From positions 23,114 to 87,113 of the forward strand of contig JABJKE010000034.1 in NCBI GenBank assembly GCA_018660505.1: a stretch of DNA of 64,000 nt. The letters are read 5' to 3'. The notes beneath the pieces were generated by a model, which ran no database searches, had not been told where the DNA came from, and saw nothing but the letters and a program-made list of their open reading frames with translations. Below, piece after piece: positions 1,166 to 16,221 of this stretch. Positions within the stretch are counted from its first letter, which is position 1. Each line of letters begins with the position of its first letter. The translations under genes and the position numbers were made by a program. The DNA is from Rhodobiaceae bacterium. Its GTDB lineage: Bacteria > Pseudomonadota > Alphaproteobacteria > RS24.

Positions 1166-1311
1166 AAACGCCGCTCCCAAATTTCTGTTGCATGAATAGC
1201 ATATTGCAAGGCGAGGTTGAAGCGGGCTTGATGGCGCGGCTTTCCCCCGCCTTTATATTTAGGCCGATTTATTTACGTATGGCGGGCGCGCAACTCTGCT
1301 ATAAGCCGCCT

Positions 1312-2532
1312 ATGAGTGATATTCAAAGTGACGAAAAATTCGATGTAATCATCGTCGGCGCGGGCGCCGCCGGGCTGATGTGCGCCATTGAGGCGGGCAA
1401 ACGCGGCCGCAGCGTTTGGCTGATCGACCATGCCACGAAGATTGCCGAGAAAATTCGCATCTCGGGCGGGGGGCGGTGCAATTTCACCAATACGCGCACC
1501 AAGCCAGACAATTATCTGTCGAATAATCCGCATTTTTGCAAATCGGCGCTCAAGCAATATACCCAGCATGATTTCATCGCTTGGGTGGAAAGCCATAAAA
1601 TCGCCTATCACGAAAAAGCGCTGGGGCAATTATTTTGCGATGGTAGCGCGCAAGAAATTATCGACATGTTGCTCGCCGAAGCGGCCGCCGCGGGCGTGCA
1701 ACTGGATATGCAAACCGAGATTACCTCGGTACAACGCAGCCCTGAGGGCGAGGGCTTTACGCTGGTCACGCAATCGCAAAATTCTGGCGCGCCGCTGACC
1801 ACGCTTTGCGAGTCCTTGGTTATCGCTGCGGGCGGGCTGTCGATTCCGAAAATTGGCGCGACGAAATTTGGCTATGACGTGGCGCGCCAATTTGGCCTCG
1901 CCATCGTCGAGACCCGCGCCGCTCTGGTGCCGCTAACTTTCCAAGCCGATTTGCTCGACCGCTGCAAAGCCATGTCGGGCCTCTCGGTCGATGCTGTGGT
2001 CAGTTGTCAGAAAGCCAATTTCGAAGAAGCCATGCTGTTCACCCACCGCGGCCTCTCGGGCCCGTCTATCTTGCAAGTGTCGTCTTATTGGCGCGAGGGG
2101 ATGACGATTAAAGTTAATCTGGCGCCCAAGGTGGATGTGACGGCGCATCTTTTGGCGCGCAAAAACGAGGGCGTGAAGCTAGATGTCGCCAGCGTGCTGA
2201 ACGAGCTTTTGCCGAAAAAACTAGCGCAAGATATGTGCCAAAGCCAAAACCTAACGGGCCGTTTGGCCGAGGCAAGCGACGCCAAATTGGCGCAGCTGGG
2301 CGCGGCGGTAAACGATTGGGAGCTTATGCCCGCGGGCTCGGAGGGCTATCGCACGGCCGAGGTGACTTTGGGCGGCGTCGATACCGATGCGCTATCGTCA
2401 AAAACCATGCAGGCCAAAGACCATGCGGGCTTATATTTCATCGGCGAAGTGGTCGATGTGACGGGGCATTTGGGCGGCTATAATTTCCAATGGGCTTGGT
2501 CGTCTGGCTATGTCGCGGGACAAAACGCCTAG
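1312..2532 (+). CDS. NAD(P)/FAD-dependent oxidoreductase, HI0933/BaiN-like flavoprotein
   Basis: ORF 1192..2532. Internal ATG at 1312 gives MSDIQSDEKFDVIIVGAGAAGLMCA (Rossmann GxGxxG). ISGGGRCNFTN and C-terminal GGYNFQWAWSSG motifs are typical of the family. Confidence 0.8.
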   Translation: MSDIQSDEKFDVIIVGAGAAGLMCAIEAGKRGRSVWLIDHATKIAEKIRISGGGRCNFTNTRTKPDNYLSNNPHFCKSALKQYTQHDFIAWVESHKIAYHEKALGQLFCDGSAQEIIDMLLAEAAAAGVQLDMQTEITSVQRSPEGEGFTLVTQSQNSGAPLTTLCESLVIAAGGLSIPKIGATKFGYDVARQFGLAIVETRAALVPLTFQADLLDRCKAMSGLSVDAVVSCQKANFEEAMLFTHRGLSGPSILQVSSYWREGMTIKVNLAPKVDVTAHLLARKNEGVKLDVASVLNELLPKKLAQDMCQSQNLTGRLAEASDAKLAQLGAAVNDWELMPAGSEGYRTAEVTLGGVDTDALSSKTMQAKDHAGLYFIGEVVDVTGHLGGYNFQWAWSSGYVAGQNA

Positions 2533-2633
2533 CGGGGAGCGGCAAAACGCGCTACCACGCTCCCACTTCTGCTCCCACTTTTATTCCCACTCCCAAATCT
2601 CGATTTCCATACCCTTTTACAAGCGAGCCAATT

Positions 2634-4235
2634 ATGTCCTCCGCCTTTTCCAAATTGCAAAATTATATCCTCGGCGTGCCGCTCCACCAGCCGCCGCAAA
2701 GCCTCACAATCTCGCAAGTGCGGATGGATGTTTTGGCCGGCCTAACCGTCGCCTTGGCGCTGGTGCCAGAAGCGGTGGCTTTTGCTTTTGTGGCTGGCGT
2801 CGACCCGCTGGTCGGCCTTTATGCGGCCTTTCTGGTGGGCCTGATAACCGCCGCGATTGGCGGACGTCCCGGTATGATTTCCGGTGCCACGGGCGCGCTG
2901 GCTGTGGTGATGGTGGCTTTGGTGGCGCAACACGGCGTGCAATATTTATTCGCCACTGTGGTGCTGATGGGAATTTTGCAATTACTGGCAGGCGCGCTTC
3001 GTTGGGGCAAATTTATCCGCATGGTGCCGCATCCGGTGATGCTGGGGTTTGTGAATGGCCTCGCCATTGTCATCGGTCTGGCGCAATTAGAGCAGTTTAA
3101 AACCACCAATGAGATGGGCGTCAGCCAATGGATTGGCGGTTTCGAGCTGCTGGCCACAGCCGGTCTGGTGGTGGCGACAATGGCGCTGATTTATGCGACG
3201 CCCAAATTAACCAAACTCATTCCCGCGCCCTTGGCGGCCATTGGCTTGGTCACCGCCGTGGTGCTTGGATTTGATATCCAAGTGCCGCGCGTCGGCGATT
3301 TGGCCAGCCTGTCTGGCGGCCTGCCGAGTTTTGCCATTCCCATGGTGCCGTTCACGCTAGAGACTTTGGCGATTATTTTCCCTTACGCGGTTATTCTGGC
3401 GGCCATTGGGCTGATTGAAAGCCTGCTGACGCTCAACCTCGTGGGCGAGATTACCGAGCAACGCGGTGGCGCGTCGCAAGAATGTATGGCGCAAGGGGCG
3501 GCCAATTTGGCGACTGGCTTTTTTGGCGGCATGGGCGGCTGCGCGATGATTGGCCAATCGATGATCAACGTAAATTCGGGCGGGCGAACGCGTATCGGCG
3601 GCCTTGCGGCGGCTTTGTTTCTCTTGGTGTTTATCCTCTTCGCCTCGGGGCTGATTGAGCAAATCCCGATTGCAGCCCTCGTCGGCGTTATGTTCATGGT
3701 GGTCATTGGCACTTTCGCGTGGAACTCGCTGAAGACGCTTTTCAAAGTGCCGCGCGCCGATGCGCTGGTGATTATCGTGGTGACCATTGTCACTGTGGCA
3801 GAAGATTTAGCCATTGCCGTGGTGGTGGGCGTGATTATGTCGGCTCTGGTTTATGCGTGGAACGCGGCTAAACGCATTCACGCCTCCAAGCGCCCGTCGG
3901 CGCGCGAAAAGGGCGCGATTGTCTATGACATCCAAGGGCCGTTGTTTTTTGGTTCGGTAACTGGCTTTCGGCAATTATTTGATATGGCCGAGGACCCGGA
4001 CACAGTGATTATCGATTTCGCCGCCTCGCGCGTGGTCGACCAATCGGCCTTGCAAGCGATTGAGGATGTGGCGGATAAATATAACGACTTGGGCAAACGC
4101 GTCATGCTGCGGCACTTATCGCGCGATTGCCATCGCCTGCTGAGCAAAGCCGGCCAGCTGATGATAGATAGCGACGACGACCCAGACTACGGCGTGGCAG
4201 TAGATTATGACATCAACCTCGGGGCTTTCCGCTAG
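2634..4235 (+). CDS. SulP family inorganic anion (sulfate) permease with C-terminal STAS domain
   Basis: ORF 2490..4235; likely start ATG 2634 (MSSAFSKLQNY). Multi-TM core with DVLAGLTVALALVPEAVAFAFVAG motif and a soluble C-terminal STAS-like tail (VYDIQGPLFFGS...). Confidence 0.85.
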   Translation: MSSAFSKLQNYILGVPLHQPPQSLTISQVRMDVLAGLTVALALVPEAVAFAFVAGVDPLVGLYAAFLVGLITAAIGGRPGMISGATGALAVVMVALVAQHGVQYLFATVVLMGILQLLAGALRWGKFIRMVPHPVMLGFVNGLAIVIGLAQLEQFKTTNEMGVSQWIGGFELLATAGLVVATMALIYATPKLTKLIPAPLAAIGLVTAVVLGFDIQVPRVGDLASLSGGLPSFAIPMVPFTLETLAIIFPYAVILAAIGLIESLLTLNLVGEITEQRGGASQECMAQGAANLATGFFGGMGGCAMIGQSMINVNSGGRTRIGGLAAALFLLVFILFASGLIEQIPIAALVGVMFMVVIGTFAWNSLKTLFKVPRADALVIIVVTIVTVAEDLAIAVVVGVIMSALVYAWNAAKRIHASKRPSAREKGAIVYDIQGPLFFGSVTGFRQLFDMAEDPDTVIIDFAASRVVDQSALQAIEDVADKYNDLGKRVMLRHLSRDCHRLLSKAGQLMIDSDDDPDYGVAVDYDINLGAFR

Positions 4236-4313
4236 GCTTCGCGCGGCGCGCATATTGACACCTATGGCGCCAAAACCTAGGGTTTGTGACGAAAACCAGA
4301 GGGAGCGAAGAGG

Positions 4314-5252
4314 ATGAAGAAGCGCCAAACGCCAGCTGCTCGATTTGATAAATTACCCGAGTATGATTTCGCCCCGCATTTCGTCACCCTAGATGACGGC
4401 GAGGGCGGAACGCTCGATATGCATTACATCGAGGCCGGCCCCGCCGATGGGCCGCCCGTCGTGATGATACATGGAAATCCTACGTGGTCTTTCATGTGGC
4501 GCAAACTGATGCCGCGGCTGGCGGCGGCGGGATATCGGGCCATTGCCATTGATTTAATTGGCATGGGGCGCTCTGACAAGCCAACCCGTATGCGCGATTA
4601 TACGATTAAGCGACACGTCAAATGGGTCGAGCAGGCCTTGTTTGAAAAGCTAGATTTAAATGGCGTGCATTTTGTTTTGCATGATTGGGGCGGCATTATT
4701 GGCCTTCGCGCCATCGCCAACCATCAGGTTCGCGTGGCCAGCATCACCTTCTCGAATACCGGGCTTCCGGTGCGCGACCCGGCCGAGAAAATCACCAAAA
4801 TGGCCATGCCAGGAGCTGGGTTTTTACGCAGCTTTCAGCTCTATGTGCGGTTTAACCCGATGTGGCGGCATTGGAAGCTTTTGGCGCGTCTGCTGGTCAA
4901 AAAACCATCGCCCGACGTGGTGGCCGGCTATGCCGCGCCTTATCCCAATTGGCGCTATCTAACGGGCAATCGGCAATTTACCCAAATGCTGCCCACGCGG
5001 TTTGATAATCCAATGCTCATCGATAATTTTCAGGCTCGTGAAAAACTGCGCGATTTCGACAAGCCATTTTTGTGCCTGTTTTCCGATAAGGATCAAGTGG
5101 CGCCAAATGGGCATAGGTCCGTGCGCCCGTTTATCGCGGGCGCGGCGCGTCGCGAGCCGGTGATTTTAAAAGGCGGCAGTCATTTTCTGCTAGAGGATGT
5201 GCCCGAAGACTATGGCGATGCGCTGCTGTCGTTTCTCACAGAAATTCGCTAG
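4314..5252 (+). CDS. haloalkane dehalogenase-like alpha/beta hydrolase
   Basis: 312 aa. HGNPTWSFMWRKLMP and nucleophile elbow HDWGG motifs are characteristic of haloalkane dehalogenases. Confidence 0.7.
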   Translation: MKKRQTPAARFDKLPEYDFAPHFVTLDDGEGGTLDMHYIEAGPADGPPVVMIHGNPTWSFMWRKLMPRLAAAGYRAIAIDLIGMGRSDKPTRMRDYTIKRHVKWVEQALFEKLDLNGVHFVLHDWGGIIGLRAIANHQVRVASITFSNTGLPVRDPAEKITKMAMPGAGFLRSFQLYVRFNPMWRHWKLLARLLVKKPSPDVVAGYAAPYPNWRYLTGNRQFTQMLPTRFDNPMLIDNFQAREKLRDFDKPFLCLFSDKDQVAPNGHRSVRPFIAGAARREPVILKGGSHFLLEDVPEDYGDALLSFLTEIR

Positions 5253-5260
5253 CGCTTCGG

Positions 5261-6415
5261 CTAAGTTTTTGCGCCCCAAACCTCGCGGTTATCGCGCCGC
5301 TCGACGCGCCGCGTGCTGCGCGCGTGCAGGATGCGCTCTAAGCCCGTCTCGCGCAGCAGAGCCTCAACGCTGTCGCGGTCGCTGTCTTGCAGGGCATCAT
5401 AGGCATCTTGAATGCGTTGCAACATGAATATCCGATAGGGCATCACCATGGCCTTGACGGTTTTCCCGCGCCAAGCGAAGTCGCAAAAGCCAATATGGCG
5501 GGTGGTTTCTTTGCCGCCAATCATATCGCCCTCGCTGATTTGCGTATCTTGCAGGTATTGATTTTGCACGTCGACCATAGCCTCAATCTCTGGCAAATAG
5601 TCGCTGGCCACACGCCGCAAAAGCGTTTTCAGCGTATCTGGAATCTCATCTTCGGCCATCAGGCTTTCGTTGCGGCCAATAAATTCAACCATATCCGGCG
5701 ATGGGTTGCGCATCCGCTCGGTCCAGCGAAACAGCATGGGGGCTTTTTGTTGCATCAAGCGCAGCGGGTGCGGGTCGCGGCCCAAATGGGCGAACAGCGA
5801 AGCGAATAATCCATAATCGCCAATCGTCGGGGCGCCGCCCAACAGATAGGGCTGGGCTGAGAAATGCGCGTCAAATTCGGCCAATATCTCGTGATAGGCG
5901 GCTTCGATATCGGGCATGATTTCTGGCGTCACGCCAAAAGCAACGGCGGCTTTGCGCATACGGCCCGCCGCGTGTAGCGCCATGTCGCGGCGCTCGTCGG
6001 CTGGCACATGCGGCATGGCAAACAGGCCAAATTGCTGCAAAATGAAGTCCAGATTATCTTCGTCGAAATTCCAGCGGTAATGCATGGCAGGTCGCAATAG
6101 GCCTTCGCCGCCGAACATCTCCATAATCAAAGAGCTGACCAGATGACGCGGCGTTTTCGGATAGGCCGAATGTTTGGCCCTGCCGCGGCTTTCAAACCAA
6201 TCGATAATATCTGTGCCATCTTGCACAATCTCGCCATCGGGCGTCGTCATAACCGGAATAATCCAGCGGCCAAGGGCGGGCTGAACGGTGTTTTGAAAAA
6301 CCGGGTCGGCAGGGGAAATATCTTCAAAGGCAATGCCCTGCTTAATCAAATAAGCCCGCGCTTTGCCCGAATAGAGAGACACGCTCCACGAATATAATCT
6401 AAATAAATCGCTCAT
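5261..6415 (-). CDS. glutathione S-transferase-like protein (long form)
   Basis: 384 aa. N-terminal thioredoxin-like GST fold (LYSWSVSLYSGKARAYLIKQGIAFEDI). Function not resolvable further. Confidence 0.55.
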   Translation of the reverse strand: MSDLFRLYSWSVSLYSGKARAYLIKQGIAFEDISPADPVFQNTVQPALGRWIIPVMTTPDGEIVQDGTDIIDWFESRGRAKHSAYPKTPRHLVSSLIMEMFGGEGLLRPAMHYRWNFDEDNLDFILQQFGLFAMPHVPADERRDMALHAAGRMRKAAVAFGVTPEIMPDIEAAYHEILAEFDAHFSAQPYLLGGAPTIGDYGLFASLFAHLGRDPHPLRLMQQKAPMLFRWTERMRNPSPDMVEFIGRNESLMAEDEIPDTLKTLLRRVASDYLPEIEAMVDVQNQYLQDTQISEGDMIGGKETTRHIGFCDFAWRGKTVKAMVMPYRIFMLQRIQDAYDALQDSDRDSVEALLRETGLERILHARSTRRVERRDNREVWGAKT

Positions 6416-6425
6416 GGCGGGCCCC

Positions 6426-7063
6426 TTAGAAGGTCAGGTAAATCAGATGCGATAGAGAGGAAAGGCTAATCAAAACCAAAGCGAGCCAGACCCGAGGCGA
6501 GGGCATAAGGGTGGATAGCGTTTCCACTGGCAAAGCCAAAGTGCTCTCTAAGGCCAATTGCTTATAATTATGCACGTCGTAAAACTTCGGGTTGGTGATG
6601 GCCTTCATCAAATCGCGACGTGAGCGATATCGCATCAGGCCGATAATCTCCCAGCCCGGGTTGGCCTCAACCCCCCCCAATCTTCAATATAGTCGGCCTG
6701 AATGCGCGCGGTATAGGCCGGATAGCCAGCCGCTTTTAAAATCAGGCTGGCGAAAGGGCGGAAGTAGCTTTGCAAAAGCCTGGCCCCCGTGGTGGTTTCT
6801 CCGGTCGCGGGATGTTGAATATCTGCGTCGGGAAATTTTATCAGATTCAGCATGAAAAATTCGCGGCCACTATCGCTTCGCATGAAGTCTTCCAGAACCG
6901 ACATTTTACTCTCGCCTTCCTCCGTTTCTCTGGCTTTTAAAGCGGCCAAGAAGGCATCTATCTCATGCGGCTTTAAGGCGCCGCGCCAATTTTTATGCCA
7001 CGCGAGAAAGCCGATATAGAGAAGCAGGCTCAGCAACCAAAAACTTGCGGGTAATATTTCCAT
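6426..7063 (-). pseudogene. membrane-anchored hypothetical protein split by a frameshift at a G8 (plus-strand C8) tract
   Basis: ORFs 6635..7063 and 6426..6680 are adjacent on the minus strand. They overlap exactly at CCCCCCCC 6671..6678. Adding one G joins ...ADYIEDWGG to VEANPGWEIIGLMRYRSRRDLMKAITNPKF... in one frame. Confidence 0.6.
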
Positions 7064-7292
7064 GGGGGCTCCAAAGACTATTGAAAAAGGACAGGACCTA
7101 GAGCCAAAAAGCTAACAGATTGCCAAAAGGGCGTAAATACAAGCCTTTCATGCGGGCCGCAAATAAAGCTAAGGTGAGCAGGAGCGGCGGTAAAATGCAC
7201 GGCGCTTGGGTTAGCTTCCAGATTTACATGAGATATATTCATGTTATGTTGGAAACCTGACGAGTTAAAAAGTTGGTTTTGTGGAGTTTTAA

Positions 7293-7793
7293 GTGCGCGT
7301 TATTATAGCTATCTCTCTGAGTGTTCTATTGGCCTCTTGTAGCGAAATGTTTGTTTCTGAATATTTAAGAGCTGGCATTAAACTGGCCAATAATCCGGTC
7401 GAGTTGGCGGAAGACTATTACGAAAAAGTGCGCGCCGACAAGCTGCGGTTGCGCCGCCAGAAAAACCTAGAAGCCCTCAAGGCAGAGTTTGATTTGCAAG
7501 AATGCGGCGCCGTTTACTTCTGGCTGAGCGAATATTATCGGCGTCATAACGAAGGCAAGAGTTTCGACGCCGATGTGATGACCCGCAAATATACAATTAC
7601 CGGTATCGACCGAATGTTCCTCGGGCGGGTTATTCAAACGCGAATGGGCGATGGCATGGCTGTCTTGCCGCTTGGCAAAACGCCAGACGTAAACTGGCTG
7701 ATGCATAATAAGCGGCTGTGCGATGAAGTGTATAGCGATCGGGTGACGCAAAACCCCAAATTTGCCGCCCTTTTTGACCAGTCAGACTTTTAA
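7293..7793 (+). CDS. hypothetical lipoprotein
   Basis: GTG start. MRVIIAISLSVLLASCSE has a signal peptide plus lipobox (LLASC). Lies in an AT-richer stretch. I recognise no family. Confidence 0.5.
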   Translation: MRVIIAISLSVLLASCSEMFVSEYLRAGIKLANNPVELAEDYYEKVRADKLRLRRQKNLEALKAEFDLQECGAVYFWLSEYYRRHNEGKSFDADVMTRKYTITGIDRMFLGRVIQTRMGDGMAVLPLGKTPDVNWLMHNKRLCDEVYSDRVTQNPKFAALFDQSDF

Positions 7794-7810
7794 GAGAAAG
7801 GGTTGCCCCT

Positions 7811-8008
7811 ATGAATTGGGTCATTGTTTTTGTTATGATTGCCGGCACGCCAGGGGCGCCGCGCGATATCGAATATGTGCAAACCAAACAGCGGTTTTTA
7901 GAGATTGAAGTCTGTCGCGAAAAAGCGTCGGAGCTGAATGTATACGCAGAAATGCCAACCATTGATAACGGATTGCTGCATCAATATTATATGTGTGTCG
8001 CGATTTAA
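7811..8008 (+). CDS. small hypothetical protein (65 aa), N-terminal hydrophobic segment
   Basis: The ORF stop overlaps the next gene's start (TAATG at 8006..8010), suggesting translational coupling. No recognisable family. Confidence 0.3.
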   Translation: MNWVIVFVMIAGTPGAPRDIEYVQTKQRFLEIEVCREKASELNVYAEMPTIDNGLLHQYYMCVAI

Positions 8009-9021
8009 TGAACCCATCCGATAAGCCGCCCGTCGCCATTATTGGCACTGGCCTCGCGGGCTTGGCATGCGCCGATGGTCTGGGGCAAAAATTCGACGTG
8101 TCGCTGTTTGATAAATCGCGGGGTCTGTCTGGGCGATTGTCCACGCGGCGTGCGCAGGCGCACACATTCGACCATGGGGCGCAATATTTTCGGGCCGAGA
8201 GCGCCGCCTTTCAGCAATGGCTGAAGCCGTTTGAGGCGGCCGGGCATGTGCGCGACTGGCAACCGCGCCATGTCACGATTGCGGCCGATGGCAGTAAAAC
8301 CACGCGGCCGGACGGAGCCGCCAAGAAAGTCTTCGTTCCTGGCATGAGCGCGATTGGCAAGGTTTTGGTGGCGGGGCGCCCGCAGTGGAACCTCTATCTG
8401 GATTGCGGTATCGATGCGGTAGAGGGCCAAGCCGGAGCTTGGATGTTGCGCGCTGGCGAGAATAGCTTTGGCCCGTTCGAGCACCTTGTCTTCGCCATTC
8501 CGCCCGAGCAGGGGCTGGCGCTTTTGCCTGTCGAGACGCATTTTACTCCGGCTTTGGCCAAGACCCGAATGTTGGGCTGCCATACGTTAATGTTGGGCTA
8601 TGCGGCCCATGAGGCGCCCCAACTCGACTGGGCGTGCGCGCATTTTGAAGATGACGTGTTGGGCTTCGCGGCGGTAAATACCAGCAAGCCAGGGCGAGGC
8701 GAGGGGTTTTCCTTGGTGCTGCAAACGCGCCACGACTGGTCGCAGCGCCATATGGAAGATGATATAGACAGCGTAAGCGCCACCATGAAAGCGCGGTTTC
8801 AAGCCCTGACGGGTGCCTCGACCCAAGCCTCGGGCTATGACCGCATGCATCGATGGCGCTATGTTTCGGCGCAGGTTTTCGCGGCGACGCCAGAGCAGCC
8901 GTATTTGCTGGATACGCAGCTAGGGCTTTGCGCGATTGGCGATTGGTGCCTCGGCTCGAAAGTAGAGGATGCTTTTGTAAGCGGCATGTCGCTGGCGACA
9001 CGCCTTGGTGGTTTGGGGTAA
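8008..9021 (+). CDS. NAD/FAD-dependent oxidoreductase (renalase/amine-oxidase-like)
   Basis: ORF 7993..9021; ATG 8008 gives MNPSDKPPVAIIGTGLAGLACA (dinucleotide-binding GxGxxG). C-terminal GDWCLGSKVEDAFVSG motif. Confidence 0.7.
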   Translation: MNPSDKPPVAIIGTGLAGLACADGLGQKFDVSLFDKSRGLSGRLSTRRAQAHTFDHGAQYFRAESAAFQQWLKPFEAAGHVRDWQPRHVTIAADGSKTTRPDGAAKKVFVPGMSAIGKVLVAGRPQWNLYLDCGIDAVEGQAGAWMLRAGENSFGPFEHLVFAIPPEQGLALLPVETHFTPALAKTRMLGCHTLMLGYAAHEAPQLDWACAHFEDDVLGFAAVNTSKPGRGEGFSLVLQTRHDWSQRHMEDDIDSVSATMKARFQALTGASTQASGYDRMHRWRYVSAQVFAATPEQPYLLDTQLGLCAIGDWCLGSKVEDAFVSGMSLATRLGGLG

Positions 9022-9056
9022 GCTTGTAGCGCGCCTGTTTTTGGAAGGCCCTATTT

Positions 9057-9542
9057 TTGGAAGGAATGGCTGTGTCTATCGAACAAGAATTATCGCCGCC
9101 GGAGCATGCCATCTATATGGCGTCGAGTTTCTACGCCGAGCTTACGGCCAATGCGACGCCAGACGAGGCGCTTATTGACCTCATCGAAAAACTAGAGCCG
9201 CGCGCGCGCGAGGTGCATTTTGTTACCGCCTGCGGGTTAAAAACCAATTTCACGACGGTGCATGAGTTTCCGCTAGAGCTTGCGGAATATGCGGAGACGT
9301 CGATTGGTCATTTAAACGACATCGTCTATTGCCACGCGGCCTTAGTGCAAATCCTGCGGGCGCAAGAGGTTGCCTATCAGTTTTCCGACGAAATAGAACT
9401 GAGCCATAAAGTGGAGCAGGTGGTTGCAGCGATTACGACCGAGCTATTGGCTATTCTGACGCAAGAAGAGAAGGGCGAGGCGATTGGGGAAGAAGCCTTC
9501 GCGACGCGTCTCTTGGCGAAATTACATGCGGAGCCGGGCTAG
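9057..9542 (+). CDS. hypothetical acidic protein
   Basis: 161-aa ORF (TTG start; alternative ATGs at 9066 and 9117). Rich in Glu/Asp. No motif recognised. Confidence 0.4.
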   Translation: MEGMAVSIEQELSPPEHAIYMASSFYAELTANATPDEALIDLIEKLEPRAREVHFVTACGLKTNFTTVHEFPLELAEYAETSIGHLNDIVYCHAALVQILRAQEVAYQFSDEIELSHKVEQVVAAITTELLAILTQEEKGEAIGEEAFATRLLAKLHAEPG

Positions 9543-9554
9543 CCCGCGCATCAG

Positions 9555-9848
9555 CTAGATGTCGCTTCGTATCTCGAATGTGCGGAAGGCGGGTGCGGCG
9601 GCCAGCATTTCACTGACGCTATCGACCAAGCCTGTCTCGACACGCCATCCGATGTAGTTTTGCTGATGCTGTGAACTTTCCCAAATCTCAACCAGCAGAA
9701 GCGTATGGGTCTCGGGTTCATAATAGCTTTTGATATCTTGGCATCCGTCATAAGCACGGGTGTCGGGCAATATTTCTTTCATGGTCTGGATTACTGTTTC
9801 CGCCGCTTCGGGTTTCATTTTAAACTCAGCCGTTACCATTACTGTCAT
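9555..9848 (-). CDS. antibiotic-biosynthesis-monooxygenase (ABM/Dabb) domain protein
   Basis: ORF 9555..9896. ATG at 9848 is preceded by GAGGAG. About 97 aa, MTVMVTAEFKMKPEAAE...LLLVEIWESSQHQQNY pattern typical of ABM ferredoxin-like fold proteins. Confidence 0.55.
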   Translation of the reverse strand: MTVMVTAEFKMKPEAAETVIQTMKEILPDTRAYDGCQDIKSYYEPETHTLLLVEIWESSQHQQNYIGWRVETGLVDSVSEMLAAAPAFRTFEIRSDI

Positions 9849-9983
9849 GACAAACTCCTCTATCAAACTGTCTGATTGATAGTCACGGATAAGCAACCGG
9901 TAATCAATCCCCTATTACGCCGCGTCCGGTTTCTGATGCGGCGAGGGGGGAGGTTGCTTTAAGATTGTTATTTGGCGGAAATG

Positions 9984-10072
9984 AAAAAGGACGTCCCGTA
10001 GGACATCCCCTCAATGGTGTAAGTTCATACTTGTTAACCCTAGCAAGAACCACCTATTCCCAAGTAGTCAAT
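9984..10072 (-). ncRNA. tracrRNA: tracrRNA (predicted)
   Basis: - Minus strand of 10033..10065 reads ACTTGGGAATAGGTGGTTCTTGCTAGGGTTAAC, complementary to the crRNA-sense repeat GTTGCTCTAGCCCCCCCCCTATTCCCAAGT.
- Pairing is a 13-bp perfect block plus an 11-bp block with one bulge.
- Downstream on the minus strand lies the hairpin GGATGTCC-TACG-GGACGTCC followed by TTTTTCATTT (plus 9984..10010), an intrinsic terminator.
- TATAGT -10-like box on the minus strand at 10079..10084.
- Ends are approximate. Confidence 0.75.
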
Positions 10073-10127
10073 AACGTGACTATACTCCAATCTCATTAGA
10101 AAAAAAATAATAAAGTGAGATGCGACA

Positions 10128-13100
10128 ATGAAATACCGTTTGGGAATAGACGTGGGCACCAATTCTTTGGGTTGGGCCGCCTTGGGGCTGGATGACCATG
10201 AGGTGCCAATTTGCCTTGTAGATGCGGGCGCGCGCATTTTCAGCGAGGGTCGAGATGCCAAAACAAAATCAACACTCAAGGCGAGCCGAACAGAGAAGCG
10301 CTCGGCGCGTCGGCGGCGAGACCGGTTTTTGCAGCGTCAAAAGTTTTTGATATCAGAGCTGGTAGAGTTCAAGCTCTTTCCCGCCGACATAGATGAGCGC
10401 AAGCAGCTCGAGGCACAAGACCCTTATGCTTTGCGCCACCGTGGGCTTTTGGAAAAGCTCGACCTCCATCAAATTGGCAGAGCTCTTTTTCACCTCAATC
10501 AAAGGCGCGGATTTAAATCTAATCGCAAAGATAAGAGTGAGGAAAGCACCAGCGGTGTTGTATCCAAATCAGTCCGTGCCTTGTTGCAAGAAATGAAACT
10601 AATGGCTGCGGAGCTTTCCGAAGACGACTTCAAGGCTTTGTCCAAGGAAGAGAACAAAGCCCTTCGCGTTGAAGAAGCCACCAATCGGAAATTGGCAATT
10701 GAAAACCTTGCCGCGCAACCCAATGTGAGCTTTGGCTCTTTCCTGCATCAGCGTCGCCAAAAGGGGCAGACTGTGCGGGCACGTCGGCAAGCGGATGGCA
10801 AGCTTTATGATGTCTACCCGACGAGAGAATTGCTCGAGGATGAGTTTACCAAAATCTTAGCGAAACAGGCCGCGTATTATCCCGATGTGATAACGCCCGA
10901 GGTGAGGGAACGGCTTCGCATTATCATTTTCACCCAAAGAGAGCTGAAGGAACAAAAGCGAGGGCTGTGTAGTTTTTATGCCGAAGAAAAAAGAACCTTC
11001 CGCTGTATGCCGGGTTTCCAGCGTTATCGCATGGTGCAAGACCTGCACGCTTTGGAGTGGGCCGATACAAATGGCAAGCATTGCTTGCGCGACTACCCCG
11101 ATGCCCGCGATGAGATATTGGCCAAGATGGAAGGCGTAACCAGTAAAAAGGGCGAGTTTACGTTTGGCAATATGAAAAAGATTTTGAAAAAGCATGGCCT
11201 AGTGGTTGGAGATACGCGGTTTAATTTTGAAAACCCCAAGCGCAAGGGTTTTGAAGGCAATATGACTTCACGGATTATGCAACATGAGGAACTTGTGGGC
11301 GCGCAATGGTATGATTGGCCGCTAGAAAAACAAGATAGACTGATTGACATTGTTAATGATGGCACTTTGATAGACGAAGAAGTGCTGGGTTATTTGCAAA
11401 ATGAATTCGGGCTATGCGAGTTTAACGCGCAAAACACCATGAACGCCCATCTGTTTGAGGGAACGGCAAGCGTATCGCAAAAAGCCGCCCTGAAACTGTA
11501 TCATCACATGCTGGCGCATAACTGCCTGCAATCGGATGCTGTGCAAGCCTGCGCAGAAGAAGATGAAGCCTTTGCCAATCCGTTTACCAGACAAGGCAGC
11601 GGGGAGTTGCTCGACGCGCTTCCCTATTATGGAGAAGCTTTTCAAGATGGCCGCCATATTATTCCTGGCGACCGCGACCCTAAAGACAGCCATGATGCTG
11701 CGAAATATTATGGCGCCGTGTCTAATCCGACAGTGCATATTGCGCTGAATCAAATCCGTCAGGTGGTCAACGAGCTGATAGAGCGCCTTGGGCATCCCAC
11801 CTCTATCTCTATCGAGCTGGCTCGTAATTTGCCGGAGGGCGAAATAGGCCGCAAGAAGATAGAAAAAGAACAGGCGGATAACCAAGTAGCCAACGGGGAT
11901 ATCGACGAAGAGCTTGAAAAGCTGGGTCAAAACCCTTCGCGCGAAAACCGTTTACGCTTGGCACTTTGGAAGCAATTATCCACGGACCCTAATAGTCGGT
12001 TTTGCCCCTTCACGGGCGAAAAAATAACGATGAGCGACCTATTTAATGGGGCGGCCGAGATTGAACATCTTATTCCGTTCTCACAATCGTTGGACGACAG
12101 CAAAGCCAATAAGGTAATCTGCACCCGCAAAGCCAATCGGGATAAGGGCAACCAAACGCCTTTCCAAGCCTTTGGCCATAGTCCAAATGGCTATGACTGG
12201 CAGGCCATCCAAGAGCGCGCCAATGATTTGCCCCAATCCAAAAGGTGGCGCTTTCAAGAGGATGCGATGGAGATATGGCTTCGCGATCATTCTGATTTCT
12301 CTGGCCGACACCTCAATGACACGCGCTATATTGGCCGCCTAACGCGCGAGTATTTGGAAGCCGTTTGTCCTCATAATAAAATTGATGTTGTGACGGGACG
12401 CCTCACCGCCTTATTGCGCGGCCATTGGGGGCTAAACAGTATCTTGCGTGGCCATAATGCGCCCGAAACCGAAAAGAATAAAAAGCTTAGAGACGACCAC
12501 CGCCATCATGCGATTGATGCCATTGTGATTGGCATGACCACGCGGTCTATGTTGCAGCGCGTGTCCACGGCGGCGGGGCGGGCTGAAGAGCTAGATATCG
12601 CGCGACTATTCGTCACCAATGATGCAGGGCATTCGGCAATTGAGCCTTGGGATGGTTTCCGCGACGAAGTGGGCGAGAAAGTGCGGTCGGTTATTGTTTC
12701 GCACAAAGTGAAGCGCAAAACACGCGGCCATGGCGCGACTGATGGGCAGCTTCATAATGAAACAGCCTATGGCATAGTTTCTGGGCCAGATGAGGAAGGC
12801 GGGTATGAGGTAACGGTGCGCAAACCCGTTGGATATTTTGATACGAAAAAACGCATAGAAATTATTCGGGATGCAACCATTCAAGCGGCGTTTCTAGATG
12901 CATTCGAGGCCGCACCCGATGCTAAAAGTGCCAAACAGGCGGTTTTGCAGCGCGCCAGTGAGATGGGGGTGAAGTCTGTTCGTACGCTAGAAGTGAAAAA
13001 AATTGTTCCCATCGCTGATAAATCTGGCAAGGCATATAAAGCCTATGCCCCAGATGGTCATTGGGGCATGGAAATCTTTGAGTATCCTTCAGGGCATAAG

Positions 13101-13457
13101 AATGCGGGTGAGTGGGAAAGCGTTATCATCACGAGGTTTGAAGCCAACCAACCAAGCTTCAAACCCGGGGAAACCAAGCGTCCCCATCCAGCCGCAAAGC
13201 TTGTCATGCGGTTTCAAATTAACGATTTGGTCGAAGTCACGATTGACGGCGAGCCCACTATCTACCGCGTTCAAAAAATGTCTGCAGGGATGCTTGTCTG
13301 TGCGCCGCCCAATGAAGCCAATGTAGATGCACGGAAAAGAGATAAAGAAGATGCGTTCCAATATAAAGAATTCAACGCCCGTCGCTTGAAAAAACGCAAG
13401 GCGCGCAAACTTCATATCAGCCCGTCCGGCAGAATAAATTATTCTAAAGGTAAATAG
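10128..13457 (+). CDS. cas9: CRISPR-associated endonuclease Cas9, type II-C
   Basis: - 1109 aa.
- RuvC-I: MKYRLGIDVGTNSLGWA.
- Arg-rich bridge helix: RTEKRSARRRRDRFLQRQ.
- RuvC-II: ISIELARNL.
- HNH: EIEHLIPFSQSLDDSKANKVICTRKANRDKGNQTP.
- RuvC-III: DDHRHHAIDAIVIG.
- Followed directly by cas1-cas2, with no csn2 or cas4. Confidence 0.97.
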   Translation: MKYRLGIDVGTNSLGWAALGLDDHEVPICLVDAGARIFSEGRDAKTKSTLKASRTEKRSARRRRDRFLQRQKFLISELVEFKLFPADIDERKQLEAQDPYALRHRGLLEKLDLHQIGRALFHLNQRRGFKSNRKDKSEESTSGVVSKSVRALLQEMKLMAAELSEDDFKALSKEENKALRVEEATNRKLAIENLAAQPNVSFGSFLHQRRQKGQTVRARRQADGKLYDVYPTRELLEDEFTKILAKQAAYYPDVITPEVRERLRIIIFTQRELKEQKRGLCSFYAEEKRTFRCMPGFQRYRMVQDLHALEWADTNGKHCLRDYPDARDEILAKMEGVTSKKGEFTFGNMKKILKKHGLVVGDTRFNFENPKRKGFEGNMTSRIMQHEELVGAQWYDWPLEKQDRLIDIVNDGTLIDEEVLGYLQNEFGLCEFNAQNTMNAHLFEGTASVSQKAALKLYHHMLAHNCLQSDAVQACAEEDEAFANPFTRQGSGELLDALPYYGEAFQDGRHIIPGDRDPKDSHDAAKYYGAVSNPTVHIALNQIRQVVNELIERLGHPTSISIELARNLPEGEIGRKKIEKEQADNQVANGDIDEELEKLGQNPSRENRLRLALWKQLSTDPNSRFCPFTGEKITMSDLFNGAAEIEHLIPFSQSLDDSKANKVICTRKANRDKGNQTPFQAFGHSPNGYDWQAIQERANDLPQSKRWRFQEDAMEIWLRDHSDFSGRHLNDTRYIGRLTREYLEAVCPHNKIDVVTGRLTALLRGHWGLNSILRGHNAPETEKNKKLRDDHRHHAIDAIVIGMTTRSMLQRVSTAAGRAEELDIARLFVTNDAGHSAIEPWDGFRDEVGEKVRSVIVSHKVKRKTRGHGATDGQLHNETAYGIVSGPDEEGGYEVTVRKPVGYFDTKKRIEIIRDATIQAAFLDAFEAAPDAKSAKQAVLQRASEMGVKSVRTLEVKKIVPIADKSGKAYKAYAPDGHWGMEIFEYPSGHKNAGEWESVIITRFEANQPSFKPGETKRPHPAAKLVMRFQINDLVEVTIDGEPTIYRVQKMSAGMLVCAPPNEANVDARKRDKEDAFQYKEFNARRLKKRKARKLHISPSGRINYSKGK

Positions 13458-13478
13458 CCAATCAGGGCGTGTTTAACG

Positions 13479-14387
13479 ATGCCAGAGCAAATTATAGAGA
13501 TAGCCGAATCTGGACGGCGACTTTCCAAGCGCCGAGGGTTTATTGAAATCTACGAAAAAGAAAGCCTATTGGGAAAAGTATCTGTAGATGATGTGAGTTC
13601 TATTATTATCTCGACGCCGGGCTGTTCGGTAACGACAAATTTAATGGATGAATTATCCCTTGCGGGCATACCGCTTGTAATTTGTGGCAAGAACTACCTT
13701 CCGAGTTCGGTGACAATACCGCTGCAAGGGCATCAGAGACAATTTAAAATTATGCAGCAGCAAGGGCAAATAAGTGAGCCAAGGCGCAAGCGAGCTTGGC
13801 AAAAAATTATTCAAGCAAAAATTACCAATCAAATGGAAGTTTTGGAGAGAGCAGGGCAGACAAACCATAAGCTCAAACAATTGGTAAAAAGGGTTGGGTC
13901 GGGGGATCCTGAAAACATAGAGGCGCAGGCTGCCAGAATTTATTGGCAATGTCTTTTTGGCAGTGAGTTCAGAAGAGACAGAAACCAAGTTGGGCTAAAC
14001 GCAGCTTTGAATTATGCCTATACGGTTTTGCGTGCCTGTGTTGCGAGGGGCGTGTGCGCCGCAGGGCTTCACCCGTCTTTTAGTTTGCATCATAAAAGTG
14101 CGCGTAATCCTTTCAACTTGGTGGATGATTTAATTGAGCCGTTACGACCTATGGCCGATTATTTGATTTACTCAAAAGTGGAAGATTTTGTAGGGGAGCT
14201 GAATCCAGACTTGAAGCAACATTTGGCAGGTTTGTTAAGCCTTGAGGTGCAAGCAGAAAATGGTATCGGCTCTCTATCTGTCGCAACGGCAAAAATGTGT
14301 CAGGCTCTCGTCGCTTATTATTTCGGCGACCTAGATGCCGATTTTACCCTGCCAATGCCTAGCCCTTTGGCTTATCATGCATCTTAG
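13479..14387 (+). CDS. cas1: CRISPR-associated endonuclease Cas1 (type II)
   Basis: 302 aa. ENIEAQAARIYW, LNYAYTVLRA, GLHPSFSLHHKSARNPFNLVDDLIEPLRP motifs. Position between cas9 and cas2. Confidence 0.95.
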   Translation: MPEQIIEIAESGRRLSKRRGFIEIYEKESLLGKVSVDDVSSIIISTPGCSVTTNLMDELSLAGIPLVICGKNYLPSSVTIPLQGHQRQFKIMQQQGQISEPRRKRAWQKIIQAKITNQMEVLERAGQTNHKLKQLVKRVGSGDPENIEAQAARIYWQCLFGSEFRRDRNQVGLNAALNYAYTVLRACVARGVCAAGLHPSFSLHHKSARNPFNLVDDLIEPLRPMADYLIYSKVEDFVGELNPDLKQHLAGLLSLEVQAENGIGSLSVATAKMCQALVAYYFGDLDADFTLPMPSPLAYHAS

Positions 14388-14706
14388 TGCCTATAGGATA
14401 ATGTGGCTTTTCGTAATGTTTGACCTTCCGACGGGGTCTAAAAAAGAAAGAAAAGAAGCCAGCGCGTTTAGGAATGGTCTATTGGATCAAGGTTATGAGA
14501 TGTCACAATTTTCAGTTTACTTAAAATATTGCTCTAGCCCTGACCGCGCAGAGGCATTGGAAAAGAGAATAAAGGCAATTTTACCGTCGGGTGGAAAAGT
14601 AGATATTTTAAAAATAACCGATAAACAATTTGGGGCGATGAAACGTTACAAAGCTAAATACGAATCAAAAAATGAAAAAAAACCTAAACAATTACACCTA
14701 TTTTAA
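14377..14706 (+). CDS. cas2: CRISPR-associated endoribonuclease Cas2 (type II)
   Basis: ORF 14335..14706. ATG 14377 gives MHLSAYRIMWLFVMFDLPTGSKKERKEASAFRNGLLDQGYEMSQFSVY, collinear with type II Cas2 N-termini (..MRMILMFDMPTDT..ERK..). Overlaps the cas1 stop by 11 nt. Confidence 0.9.
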   Translation: MHLSAYRIMWLFVMFDLPTGSKKERKEASAFRNGLLDQGYEMSQFSVYLKYCSSPDRAEALEKRIKAILPSGGKVDILKITDKQFGAMKRYKAKYESKNEKKPKQLHLF

Positions 14707-14767
14707 TCAGTTTTGCGAACGCGAAACTATAAACCACACAACAAATTCAATACCTTACATCAACTCT

Positions 14768-14873
14768 AGCTTAGCACTTGGGAATAGGGGGGGGGCTAGA
14801 GCAACGCGGCGGCTGTCGCCTCCTCTGCTGCTTGCAGCTTAGCACTTGGGAATAGGGGGGGGGCTAGAGCAAC
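14768..14873 (-). CRISPR. minimal CRISPR array: 2 identical 38-nt repeats, 1 spacer of 30 nt
   Basis: - Repeat (plus strand) AGCTTAGCACTTGGGAATAGGGGGGGGGCTAGAGCAAC at 14768..14805 and 14836..14873.
- Spacer GCGGCGGCTGTCGCCTCCTCTGCTGCTTGC at 14806..14835.
- Minus-strand reading GTTGCTCTAGCCCCCCCCCTATTCCCAAGTGCTAAGCT has the GTTG...GCTA.. shape of type II-C repeats and matches the tracrRNA anti-repeat, so the crRNA sense is the minus strand. Confidence 0.85.
14836..14845 (-). promoter_or_regulatory. repeat-embedded extended -10-like box (TGnTAAGCT) that could drive the single crRNA
   Basis: The minus strand of the repeat's distal end reads GTGCTAAGCT. Compare the TGnTACAAT box at the same repeat position in Neisseria meningitidis II-C repeats. 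A start about 7 nt downstream would leave about 24 nt of spacer. The same box is in repeat 1 (14768..14777). Confidence 0.4.
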
Positions 14874-14875
14874 CC

Positions 14876-14950
14876 ATGCCTCGTAAGCCGCTTCGCTTTA
14901 ACCAAGCCCAAACAATAATCCATTAGGATTTTCGCCACGCCCTGCTTCCA
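14876..14950 (+). repeat. left copy of an imperfect ~75-80-nt direct repeat (partner 15871..15950)
   Basis: Blocks aligned by eye:
- ATGCCTCGTAAGCC vs ATGCCGTGAAAGCC (11/14)
- AACAATAATCCATT vs AACAAAAATCTATT (12/14)
- GGATTTTCGCCACG vs GGATTTTCGCTACG (13/14)
All are in the same order and orientation. Confidence 0.6.
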
Positions 14951-15357
14951 GCGTTACCGCTATAGCCCTTCATAAAACATCCTGATTTATCGGGCTTCGA
15001 GATGTCCACTGAAACGCGTTTTCGTATCCGTTTATTTCTATTTCGACGACACTTCACTTTTTTGAAATGAAATATCACTTTTCTTCCTAAAACAAATCTG
15101 ATTAGGTTTTACAAGGTGAGGTGGGTTTTTGCGTTTAACTAAGAACCGTTAATGTACCTTGTCTTTAAAAGTGTGCCGTTTTGGCAGTCAACTAAGGAGA
15201 ACATTAGCGGAGCTTCAGGTAAATCCAAATGGTTTTGATTTCAAGGTAGGCAAGTGATGAAAGCTTAGACCGTCCTTGAGCCTTGAAGATCAGTCGCTGA
15301 AAAGGCTTAGGGTTAAAATGGTATGTATTCATTCGTAATTATGTTGAGGAGAGTTAC

Positions 15358-15789
15358 ATGACTTTTGTAGAAACAAATATGTTTTACGCGCAAATCTATC
15401 AATTTATGGGATTAGCTTTTATCGGTTCGTCTTTTTTACTTTGGGTTGGCATGCGGGTTACTTCCGTTTTAGTGGAACGCGAAACGGACAATATCGTTGC
15501 CAAAGTATTGGCGATTATCTTTGGGATAGCGGTTAGCCTGAACTACATCACCATCAGTGCCAATTTGGCGCTCCAATTAGAGAGCCACGCATACTCGCTG
15601 AAGCAGCTAGCTGCGCAGGGCATGGACCTACCAGCTACATCGCTCGGCTTTATTGAAAGAATGGGCGGTGGCAACGCCGTTCCTGAATTTAGCCTGCTGG
15701 GAAATCCGCTGCAAGTGGTGATTGGCCTTATTGCGCTGGCCTTCTGCATCATGCCTCTTTTCGTACCAGTGAAATCTAACAATTCCTGA
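15358..15789 (+). CDS. hypothetical small integral membrane protein (about 3-4 TM)
   Basis: 143-aa ORF with GGAGAG RBS upstream of ATG 15358. Hydrophobic segments (FMGLAFIGSSFLLWVGM, VLAIIFGIAVSLNYI, VVIGLIALAFCIMPLFV). Followed by an intrinsic terminator. No family recognised. Confidence 0.55.
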   Translation: MTFVETNMFYAQIYQFMGLAFIGSSFLLWVGMRVTSVLVERETDNIVAKVLAIIFGIAVSLNYITISANLALQLESHAYSLKQLAAQGMDLPATSLGFIERMGGGNAVPEFSLLGNPLQVVIGLIALAFCIMPLFVPVKSNNS

Positions 15790-15812
15790 TTTTTGAGAGT
15801 CATACAAAACGA

Positions 15813-15841
15813 AAAACGCGGCCGAGAGGTCGCGTTTTTTT
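15813..15841 (+). terminator. intrinsic terminator after the membrane-protein ORF
   Basis: AAAACGCGGCC-GAGA-GGTCGCGTTTTTTTT: GC-rich 7-bp stem (one G:U) plus a T-run. Confidence 0.7.
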
Positions 15842-15870
15842 GTTGGAAAGTTTATTTCTTCATATCGATA

Positions 15871-15950
15871 ATGCCGTGAAAGCCAAGGGGCTATGGGAAG
15901 CTAACCCTAACAAAAATCTATTTTGGATTTTCGCTACGGCCGACTTCGGG
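15871..15950 (+). repeat. right copy of the imperfect direct repeat (partner 14876..14950)
   Basis: See left copy. The two copies bracket about 1 kb of AT-rich DNA containing ORF 15358..15789 and its terminator. Confidence 0.6.
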
Positions 15951-16041
15951 GCTGTCGCCCCTACGCTGGCACAGACAAGAAACCCTTGCCAACTTGTTGG
16001 CTTAGACTAAAAGCACTTGGCAGTTTACTGCCTTAGTGCGC

Positions 16042-16129
16042 CTTGTCCCTTCGGTGGTGCTTTGTCCCTTCGGAGGCGGGCTAAAGTCAGCTGAGCTGCC
16101 AAGCCCTTCTAGCGCCAAGCCCTTTTAGT
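16042..16129 (+). repeat. two short tandem duplications immediately next to the tRNA-Ser 3' end
   Basis: TTGTCCCTTCGG occurs at 16043..16054 and 16062..16073 (period 19). GCCAAGCCCTT occurs at 16098..16108 and 16114..16124 (period 16). The second pair ends 2 nt before the tRNA. Confidence 0.7.
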
Positions 16130-16130
16130 G

Positions 16131-16221
16131 TGGCGGAGAGGAAGGGATTCGAACCCTCGATACGGGATTACCGCATACTCCCTTAGCAGGGGAGCGCCTT
16201 CAGCCACTCGGCCACCTCTCC
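16131..16221 (-). tRNA. tRNA-Ser (anticodon GCU)
   Basis: Minus strand reads GGAGAGGTGGCCGAGTGGCTGAAGGCGCTCCCCTGCTAAGGGAGTATGCGGTAATCCCGTATCGAGGGTTCGAATCCCTTCCTCTCCGCCA. 7-bp acceptor stem, anticodon loop CUGCUAA, long variable arm, TTCGAATC T-loop, encoded CCA. Confidence 0.93.

Follow-up and report, generated by a model that had tools for sequence, protein, structure and literature searches.

A complete type II-C CRISPR-Cas9 locus in the flank of a tRNA-Ser(GCU) gene of a marine alphaproteobacterium

The window analysed in this study, a stretch of 64,000 nucleotides from a Rhodobiaceae bacterium (assembly GCA_018660505.1, contig JABJKE010000034.1, positions 23,114 to 87,113), contains at positions 9984-14873 a complete type II-C CRISPR-Cas9 system. 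In this locus, a trans-activating CRISPR RNA (tracrRNA) is encoded on the minus strand upstream of cas9, which is followed by cas1, cas2 and a short array consisting of two repeats that is again read on the minus strand (Table 1). A gene for tRNA-Ser(GCU) is found further to the right. The initial annotation, which was made by reading the sequence, had listed the same features and all of them were recovered at or near the positions that it had assigned.

Table 1. Features of the CRISPR-Cas9 locus and its flank, in window coordinates (aa, amino acids; nt, nucleotides).
Feature	Position	Strand	Description
tracrRNA	about 10072-9984	-	~89 nt; ends inferred
-10-like TATAGT box	10084-10079	-	upstream of tracrRNA
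Anti-repeat	10066-10033	-	complementary to CRISPR repeat
Nexus-like hairpin	10032-10021	-	AAGU-AUGA-ACUU
Terminator hairpin and T-run	about 10012-9984	-	8-bp G+C stem, then TTTTT
cas9	10128-13457	+	1109 aa, type II-C
cas1	13479-14387	+	302 aa, type II Cas1
cas2	14401-14706	+	101 aa from likely start 14401; open reading frame begins at 14335, overlapping cas1
CRISPR mini-array	14768-14873	-	two identical 38-nt repeats and one 30-nt spacer
Repeat (first in minus-strand sense)	14873-14836	-	GTTGCTCTAGCCCCCCCCCTATTCCCAAGTGCTAAGCT
Spacer	14835-14806	-	30 nt, 5'-GCAAGCAGCAGAGGAGGCGACAGCCGCCGC-3', 70% G+C
Repeat (second in minus-strand sense)	14805-14768	-	GTTGCTCTAGCCCCCCCCCTATTCCCAAGTGCTAAGCT
DUF5681/small-terminase-like relic	14941-14991	-	N-terminal fragment; tblastn with the open reading frame 8207-8605 of L002, 82% over 17 aa
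Small membrane-protein gene	15358-15789	+	143 aa, not a cas gene
tRNA-Ser(GCU)	16131-16221	-	ARAGORN and Rfam, 58.9 bits; right boundary of variable segment, 3' end facing the block

The assignment of the three proteins is based on profile searches, in which Cas9, a type II Cas1 and Cas2 scored far above the respective cut-offs. In case of Cas9, the match to TIGR01865 (594 bits compared to a cut-off of 100) extends end-to-end over residues 3-1102, Pfam places HNH_4 at residues 626-679 and RuvC_III at residues 722-864, and the Cas9 models of PADLOC also match the protein. Cas1 was detected with the type II profile TIGR03639 (252 bits, cut-off 120) and with PADLOC Cas1_II (E = 2.5e-95), and Cas2 with TIGR01573 (70 bits) and, for the segment 14416-14706, with PADLOC Cas2_II (E = 2e-36). 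Since the long open reading frame (14335-14706) matches the Cas2 family of Pfam only from its residue 23 onwards and an AGGA motif is located 6 nucleotides upstream of the ATG at 14401, we have placed the start of cas2 at this position, just past the stop codon of cas1. All three genes are of full length, without frameshifts or stops; the length of Cas1 is shared by four related loci (L083, L084, L086 and L087) and that of Cas9 compares to 1110-1111 residues in its homologues.

The subtype of the system is reflected in the relationship of Cas9 to proteins of known structure and in the composition of the operon. In a sequence search, the best 14 matches to solved structures span from E = 7e-55 to 8e-44. 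The output names these chains just 'Cas9', and we take them to be II-C proteins of Geobacillus-like, Neisseria and Haemophilus origin, with the top chain 9ar4 (E = 7e-55) recognized from its N-terminal sequence as presumably the ThermoCas9/GeoCas9-like protein of Geobacillus. The next group of chains (E = 1e-30 to 1e-24) is assumed to comprise the II-A proteins SaCas9 and St1Cas9, chains at E = 2e-6 are presumably SpCas9, and none of the matched chains was recognized by us as a II-B Cas9. By this ranking, the protein appears to group with II-C rather than with II-A or II-B. The operon proceeds from cas9 to cas1 and cas2 without a fourth gene, leaving a gap of 61 nucleotides between cas2 and the array, and among the open reading frames of at least 50 codons in 9897-16130 there was neither a match to Csn2 or Cas4 in Pfam, NCBIfam and PADLOC nor a frame of the size of csn2 or cas4. 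The assignment to subtype II-C, which had already been proposed in the initial annotation, thus relies on this minimal operon in conjunction with the best structure matches. A minimal cas9-cas1-cas2 operon devoid of csn2 and cas4 is what defines the subtype (PMC3737331), and the array is read opposite to the cas operon, an arrangement that N. meningitidis and C. jejuni share (PMC3737331).

Residues that mediate catalysis in Cas9 are all present. These include D8 of RuvC-I, E563 of RuvC-II and both H794 and D797 of RuvC-III as well as H647, N661 and N670 of the HNH nuclease, and the corresponding columns are invariant in an alignment of 15 sequences of the Cas9 clade. The motifs had been read as intact, which this comparison bears out, and the protein would therefore be expected to be active, although the activity itself is a prediction from sequence for a system with one spacer and no detected target. 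In the window and most other members of the clade, the catalytic histidine of HNH follows a glutamate (E646, in the motif EIEH), whereas one member carries EIDH and the Geobacillus-like chain an aspartate at the equivalent position, and this glutamate constitutes a conservative trait of the clade rather than a lesion. G674 falls into the stretch RDKGN of the HNH region, which is variable across the clade.

The clade itself is populous and known mostly from metagenomes. A search for relatives of Cas9 has returned 2521 matches, the top 120 clusters of which are at least 51% identical to the protein of the window. Among the few relatives with a name, those labelled Nitrospira and Pseudohongiellaceae are 52-57% identical and one from Alphaproteobacteria 64%, a mix of labels that suggests horizontal spread. 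No relatives were found in IMG/VR, either with the protein or with the 15-sequence alignment, and these searches thus give no sign that the clade would be phage-borne, while plasmid-borne Cas9s reach at most 38% identity. The exact sequence of the protein is not on record except for a 99.5% identical variant (P0001) encoded on the Logan contig L001.

The RNA components of the system can be read from the sequence as well. In the predicted complex, the repeat and the tracrRNA fold with an energy of -57.8 kcal/mol into a lower stem of 11 bp and an upper stem of 16 bp separated by an internal loop, which together form an interrupted duplex of 27 base pairs between repeat and anti-repeat, followed by the nexus hairpin and the terminator. 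Homologous tracrRNAs are located at the same place and on the same strand in five related loci, including that of Candidatus Micropelagos thuwalensis (L082; GCA_000469155.1, AWXE01000003.1), the metagenome contig L086 and the loci L083, L084/L085 and L087. In the alignment of the six sequences, three pairs of the terminator stem show compensatory changes on both sides, and across the related loci the anti-repeat follows the repeat of the respective array. Of the RNA families in Rfam, the tRNA alone was matched between positions 9000 and 17000, with neither a tracrRNA nor any other family detected. The suggestion that all parts of a guide RNA are readable from the sequence is thus supported for tracrRNA and repeat by their relatives.

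Within the array, the two copies of the repeat are exact over 38 nucleotides, a match that was found in none of 100 shuffled sequences. The repeat, for which a length of about 36-38 nucleotides had initially been estimated next to the correctly recognized 30-nucleotide spacer, is homologous to the 36-nucleotide repeats of L086 (9 repeats) and Micropelagos (~13 repeats), both with spacers of 30 nucleotides. Its larger length is a consequence of a run of nine cytosines on the minus strand that replaces the sequence CCCTACC of the relatives and adds two nucleotides; the tracrRNA contains GGTGG facing part of this run, which constitutes a partial compensating change. At its 3' end, the repeat carries the sequence TGCTAAGCT, which resembles an extended -10 box; the relative L087 carries TGTATAAT at this position. 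CRISPR RNAs (crRNAs) of II-C systems begin at promoters embedded in the repeats, a few nucleotides inside each spacer (PMC12477760). The array is oriented on the minus strand by its partner, since the tracrRNA, which is complementary to the repeat, is itself a minus-strand RNA.

These features define how the system would be expected to operate. Both tracrRNA and crRNA would be transcribed from the minus strand, with transcription of the latter probably starting at the extended -10-like box within the upstream repeat, as in Neisseria. The resulting crRNA would contain most of the 30-nucleotide spacer followed by the downstream repeat, and its pairing with the anti-repeat of the tracrRNA would generate the duplex that is loaded into Cas9. 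Guided by this duplex, Cas9 would cleave matching DNA flanked by a protospacer-adjacent motif (PAM) via its HNH and RuvC sites, whereas Cas1 and Cas2 would insert new spacers.

We thus regard the locus, with a probability of about 0.85, as a bona fide II-C adaptive-immunity system that is probably functional and that is located as an accessory element, most likely brought in by an island, beside tRNA-Ser(GCU) in a marine Parvibaculaceae-like alphaproteobacterium. Its integrity is judged from the clade-invariant catalytic residues, the protein lengths that match those of homologues and a tracrRNA that would form the required duplex and whose terminator stem covaries among relatives. Several observations weigh against a system in current use. 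The array contains a single spacer, compared to 8 to about 40 in relatives. For this spacer, neither the window, searched with up to 3 mismatches, nor IMG/VR, searched for exact matches, contained a protospacer, and GenBank phages and PLSDB plasmids gave nothing significant (best E-values between 0.7 and 7). Finally, in comparison with L001 (positions 310-3639), cas9 shows six nonsynonymous changes (N176K, A312T, H556N, G674R, H978N and R1090S) and a single synonymous one, a ratio that fits relaxed or diversifying selection but rests on a count too small to be weighed. Together with the Micropelagos relative, which already lacks cas1 and cas2, these observations are what would be expected of a decaying relic, whose array would have shrunk to a single spacer and whose genes would drift towards loss after immunity was abandoned. 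We nevertheless consider such decay unlikely in light of the three full-length cas genes, in which every catalytic residue is intact and invariant in the clade, and of the retained pairing of the tracrRNA, including its adjustment opposite the cytosine run. Along the same lines, L001, which is 99.8% identical over window positions 9819-14683 with 7 of the 9 differences residing in cas9, encodes Cas1 and Cas2 proteins that are 100% identical to those of the window. Short arrays also occur in II-C systems as a recognized physiological condition, which in Neisseria is one where apoCas9 boosts acquisition (PMC12477760), a context for the array described here rather than a finding on it. The single spacer would in turn reflect either a recently arrived array or one that has collapsed or contracted.

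Attempts to place the spacer in a wider context have returned little. Probed for longer arrays by means of the repeat's 3' half, IMG/VR contained no match and the JGI metagenomes just one single-copy match by chance (L088), and a further strain whose array differs was not encountered, with L001 ending before this region. The spacers of the Micropelagos array had no match in phages, and a match of an L086 spacer to the Pelagibacter phage HTVC106P (E = 0.05) was marginal and has been rejected as evidence. A single fixed spacer also resembles a domesticated guide, with which Cas9 and its crRNA would bind or cut a chromosomal target and thereby control a host gene. Cas9-associated RNAs with regulatory roles are known from Francisella and Neisseria (cited in PMC12477760; PMC13431127). 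We view such a use as highly improbable, since with both nuclease sites intact the targeting of the own chromosome would be lethal, and the spacer search described above had revealed no second match in the window, which covers only part of the genome.

A second pronounced property of the locus concerns its accessory nature, which is apparent in composition and distribution. The G+C content of the region 9897-14873 is 0.482 compared to 0.546 for the whole window and 0.554 for the sequence to its right, and the lowest value of any 5-kb interval of the window is found within the block, at position 10501. In the same way, the G+C content at third codon positions amounts to 0.53 in cas9, 0.43 in cas1 and 0.36 in cas2, compared to 0.60-0.68 in flanking genes. 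The shift in composition that had been suspected is thus confirmed by calculation, although the term AT-rich, as initially used, applies only in relation to the surrounding DNA, given a G+C content of 48%.

A DapA probe identified a Parvibaculaceae metagenome-assembled genome (L002, OZ244774.1), whose DapA is 92% identical, as the closest species among the GTDB representatives. In a blastn comparison, L002 is collinear with the window rightward from position 16130, the exact 3' end of the tRNA, over 12 kb at 82% nucleotide identity, whereas on the left it shares just the gene of an ABM-domain protein (window 9553-9914, 89% nucleotide identity). The 3.8 kb between these two anchors in L002 contain no cas genes, and none were found near tRNA-Ser in the more distant relatives L003 and L004. 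The initial annotation had asked whether the flank of tRNA-Ser is empty in close relatives, and in L002 it lacks the cas genes. Since synteny is anchored at the ABM gene and the tRNA, the variable segment can be delimited to positions 9915-16129, which largely corresponds to the interval of the initial annotation, and L001 carries the block with the same left junction. To the left of the ABM gene (window 1-9553), no similarity to the 4.6 kb left of its counterpart in L002 was detected, so that the tRNA marks a wider break in synteny, and the region that varies may extend beyond the CRISPR block. The identity of the ABM gene exceeds the 82% of the core DNA right of the tRNA, and its G+C content is low (0.48).

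By these comparisons, the CRISPR block is accessory and absent from the closest species found. Its distribution could in principle also originate from a vertically inherited core locus that was lost in the relatives examined and whose composition is merely that typical of cas genes, whose G+C content is often below that of the host, and the comparison includes only one close species. We consider this very unlikely, since L002 contains DNA derived from mobile elements at this site instead of a clean deletion, the cas genes are also missing near tRNA-Ser in L003 and L004, the taxonomic labels of the Cas9 relatives suggest horizontal spread, and a homologous module resides on an integrase island in Micropelagos.

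The accessory block and the tRNA are not immediately adjacent. The 3' end of the tRNA faces the block as had been described, but the two are separated by about 1.25 kb (14874-16130) that contain the gene of a small membrane protein and relics of mobile elements. The 143-residue protein did not match any entry in Pfam, NCBIfam, PADLOC or PHROG; homologues are encoded near tRNA-Ser in L003 and L004 (61-63% amino acid identity) and in L002 (34%), in all cases inverted with respect to the window. The relic preceding it is 82-83% identical at the DNA level to two copies in L002, where the open reading frame 8207-8605 matches both DUF5681 and a PHROG of small terminases, and a second degenerate DUF5681 copy near 15905-15950 places the 143-residue protein gene between the two. 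Imperfect direct repeats of about 45 nucleotides at 14905-14950 and 15905-15950, with 81% identity over the 26 nucleotides aligned, stem from the start of the DUF5681 gene. Directly against the 3' end of tRNA-Ser, the sequence GCCAAGCCCTTCTAGC is repeated in tandem with 1.9 copies (16098-16128), and a near-repeat of the form CTTGTCCCTTCGGTGGTG / CTTTGTCCCTTCGGAGGCG is located at about 16041-16078. The repeats between 16041 and 16128 could be either a terminator or debris of an attachment (att) site.

A potential route of arrival can be deduced from relatives, in which the same tRNA is associated with integrases. L002 carries two complete copies of tRNA-Ser(GCU), at 6905-6995 and 8879-8969, as part of a duplicated block that extends from about 21 nucleotides upstream of the tRNA to 4 nucleotides downstream. 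An N-terminal integrase remnant at 8812-8714 is 58% identical to the integrase of Micropelagos (E = 5e-8) and a second remnant is located inside the open reading frame 5030-5998 (E = 1e-5). This frame was also considered as homologue of a 468-residue Micropelagos protein, both of which match phrog_4756, but a direct comparison did not support this relationship and its C-terminal integrase-like fragment alone was significant. Direct repeats of about 150 nucleotides in L002 comprise the 5' end of the DUF5681 frame. The region 5030-8969 of L002 looks like a series of tandem integrations that have decayed.

In Micropelagos the element is better preserved. Here, the tracrRNA on the minus strand is followed by cas9, the array, the gene of the 468-residue phrog_4756 protein, a tyrosine integrase and tRNA-Ser(GCU), whereas cas1 and cas2 are missing. 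The Cas9 of this locus is mis-annotated by one source as 'NAD-dependent epimerase-dehydratase'. A segment of 11.6 kb (1380-13105) is bounded by direct repeats of 149 nucleotides (97% identical), which start 71 nucleotides upstream of tRNA-Ser(GCU) and cover its first ~70-78 nucleotides into the T-arm. The segment thus displays all features of a genomic island, including an integrase, tRNA-derived repeats, atypical composition and absence from relatives. The contig L086, whose cas9 is 91% identical to that of Micropelagos on the nucleotide level, contains the full module of tracrRNA, cas9, cas1, cas2 and array. In both cases, the module is bracketed by a second type of direct repeat of 68 nucleotides (L086, 297-363 and 5874-5941; L082, 1790-1857 and 10234-10301). 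These repeats are 94-100% identical, contain the hairpin GCGGATC-CCAA-GATCCGC and were not found in the window, and they provide a hint of a second, cassette-level insertion mechanism in the Micropelagos lineage. In comparison with L086, cas1 and cas2 have been lost from the Micropelagos locus, which has in turn gained, between the left of these repeats and the tracrRNA, some 4 kb of small paralogous open reading frames that apparently encode signal peptides.

The decayed integrations of L002 and the integrase island of Micropelagos together identify the flank of tRNA-Ser(GCU) as a hotspot of integration in this group, and the latter shows that a homologous Cas9 module is carried along by an integrase island. 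It thus appears most likely that the block of the window has arrived as cargo of an island targeting tRNA-Ser(GCU), whose mobility genes have since been lost. Of the features of such islands, the low G+C content and the absence from L002 are found in the window, whereas integrase and flanking repeats are not. Neither an integrase nor a transposase was detected in the 64 kb, in line with the initial annotation, and tblastn searches with the Micropelagos proteins at E-values up to 1 did not reveal remnants of integrase or phrog_4756 protein. Equally at odds with an island are the lack of a second tRNA-Ser 3' copy or tRNA-derived repeat in the window and of direct repeats shared by the left junction and the segment 14874-16135, the different geometry, with the Micropelagos island located on the 5' side of tRNA-Ser and the block of the window on its 3' side, and the clade members L084 and L087, which adjoin no tRNA. 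With no integrase, att repeats or second tRNA copy in the window, we infer the island route from its relatives. The arrival of the block, which the initial annotation had left unexplained, is in this way partly accounted for by the hotspot and the Micropelagos island, and the window itself retains a relic of the DUF5681 gene present in L002. A more general proposal, which we put forward tentatively and consider doubtful, is that the module would be a portable cassette that circulates among marine Parvibaculales-like alphaproteobacteria as cargo on a family of small integrative elements targeting tRNA-Ser(GCU) and encoding a tyrosine integrase together with a phrog_4756 protein. If this was the case, the window would represent an end state, where the cassette was kept and its vehicle eroded.

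Collectively, our analysis describes a new orthologue of Cas9 rather than a new kind of system, and no feature of the locus challenges the current understanding of type II systems. The protein, the crRNA repeat and the tracrRNA are all readable from the window and the RNA parts are backed by relatives, which makes the system ready for the determination of its PAM and for tests in editing. The orthologue originates from a populous and mostly metagenomic clade, with at least 120 clusters of at least 51% identity, and can itself be aligned only locally to structurally characterized Cas9s. Finally, the locus is a clear case of a minimal II-C system in a tRNA-Ser hotspot, a homologue of which is borne by an integrase element in a related genus, and bears on the spread of Cas9 in streamlined marine bacteria.

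The locus shares several properties with the II-C system of Neisseria meningitidis, which encodes Nme1Cas9. In both cases, a minimal cas9-cas1-cas2 operon is accompanied by a tracrRNA beside cas9 and an array of opposite orientation, the repeats start with GTTG and end in an extended -10-like box, the spacers are 30 nucleotides long and Cas9 comprises about 1100 residues. Differences concern the repeat, which in the window is 38 nucleotides long with its run of nine cytosines compared to 36 nucleotides, the single spacer compared to about 25, and the similarity of Cas9, which is local and confined to residues ~1-160 (the N-terminal RuvC part) and ~530-850 (HNH/RuvC-III). The chain 6jdq and its relatives, which we take to be Nme1Cas9, are among the best structure matches with E-values of about 1e-50. 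Promoters embedded in the repeats, as suspected here, have been documented for the Neisseria meningitidis system (PMC12477760). In case of the Geobacillus ThermoCas9/GeoCas9 (9ar4, an identity assigned from its N-terminal sequence), the motifs of RuvC-I, bridge-helix, HNH and RuvC-III align, whereas the match extends over no more than about one half of the protein, phmmer does not align the regions of REC and PAM interaction, and host and habitat differ.

CRISPR-Cas systems on genomic islands integrated at tRNA genes are a general phenomenon, which is for example found in Vibrio. In the window, an integrase, att repeats and a second copy of the tRNA are all missing, and its membership in this group is deduced from what it does share, which is a block of low G+C content by a tRNA, relics of integrases at the corresponding site of a sister species and, within a relative, an integrase island that is intact. 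For this relative, the island lies 5' of the tRNA, cas1 and cas2 are absent and the array comprises ~13 repeats of 36 nucleotides, and the 68-nucleotide direct repeats, which the window lacks, flank the module of both Micropelagos and L086. Yet it is with these two loci that the window shares a near-identical tracrRNA at the same place, a homologous repeat and spacers of 30 nucleotides, and with Micropelagos, the named relative whose Cas9 is most similar at a full-length identity of 62%, also the proximity to tRNA-Ser(GCU).

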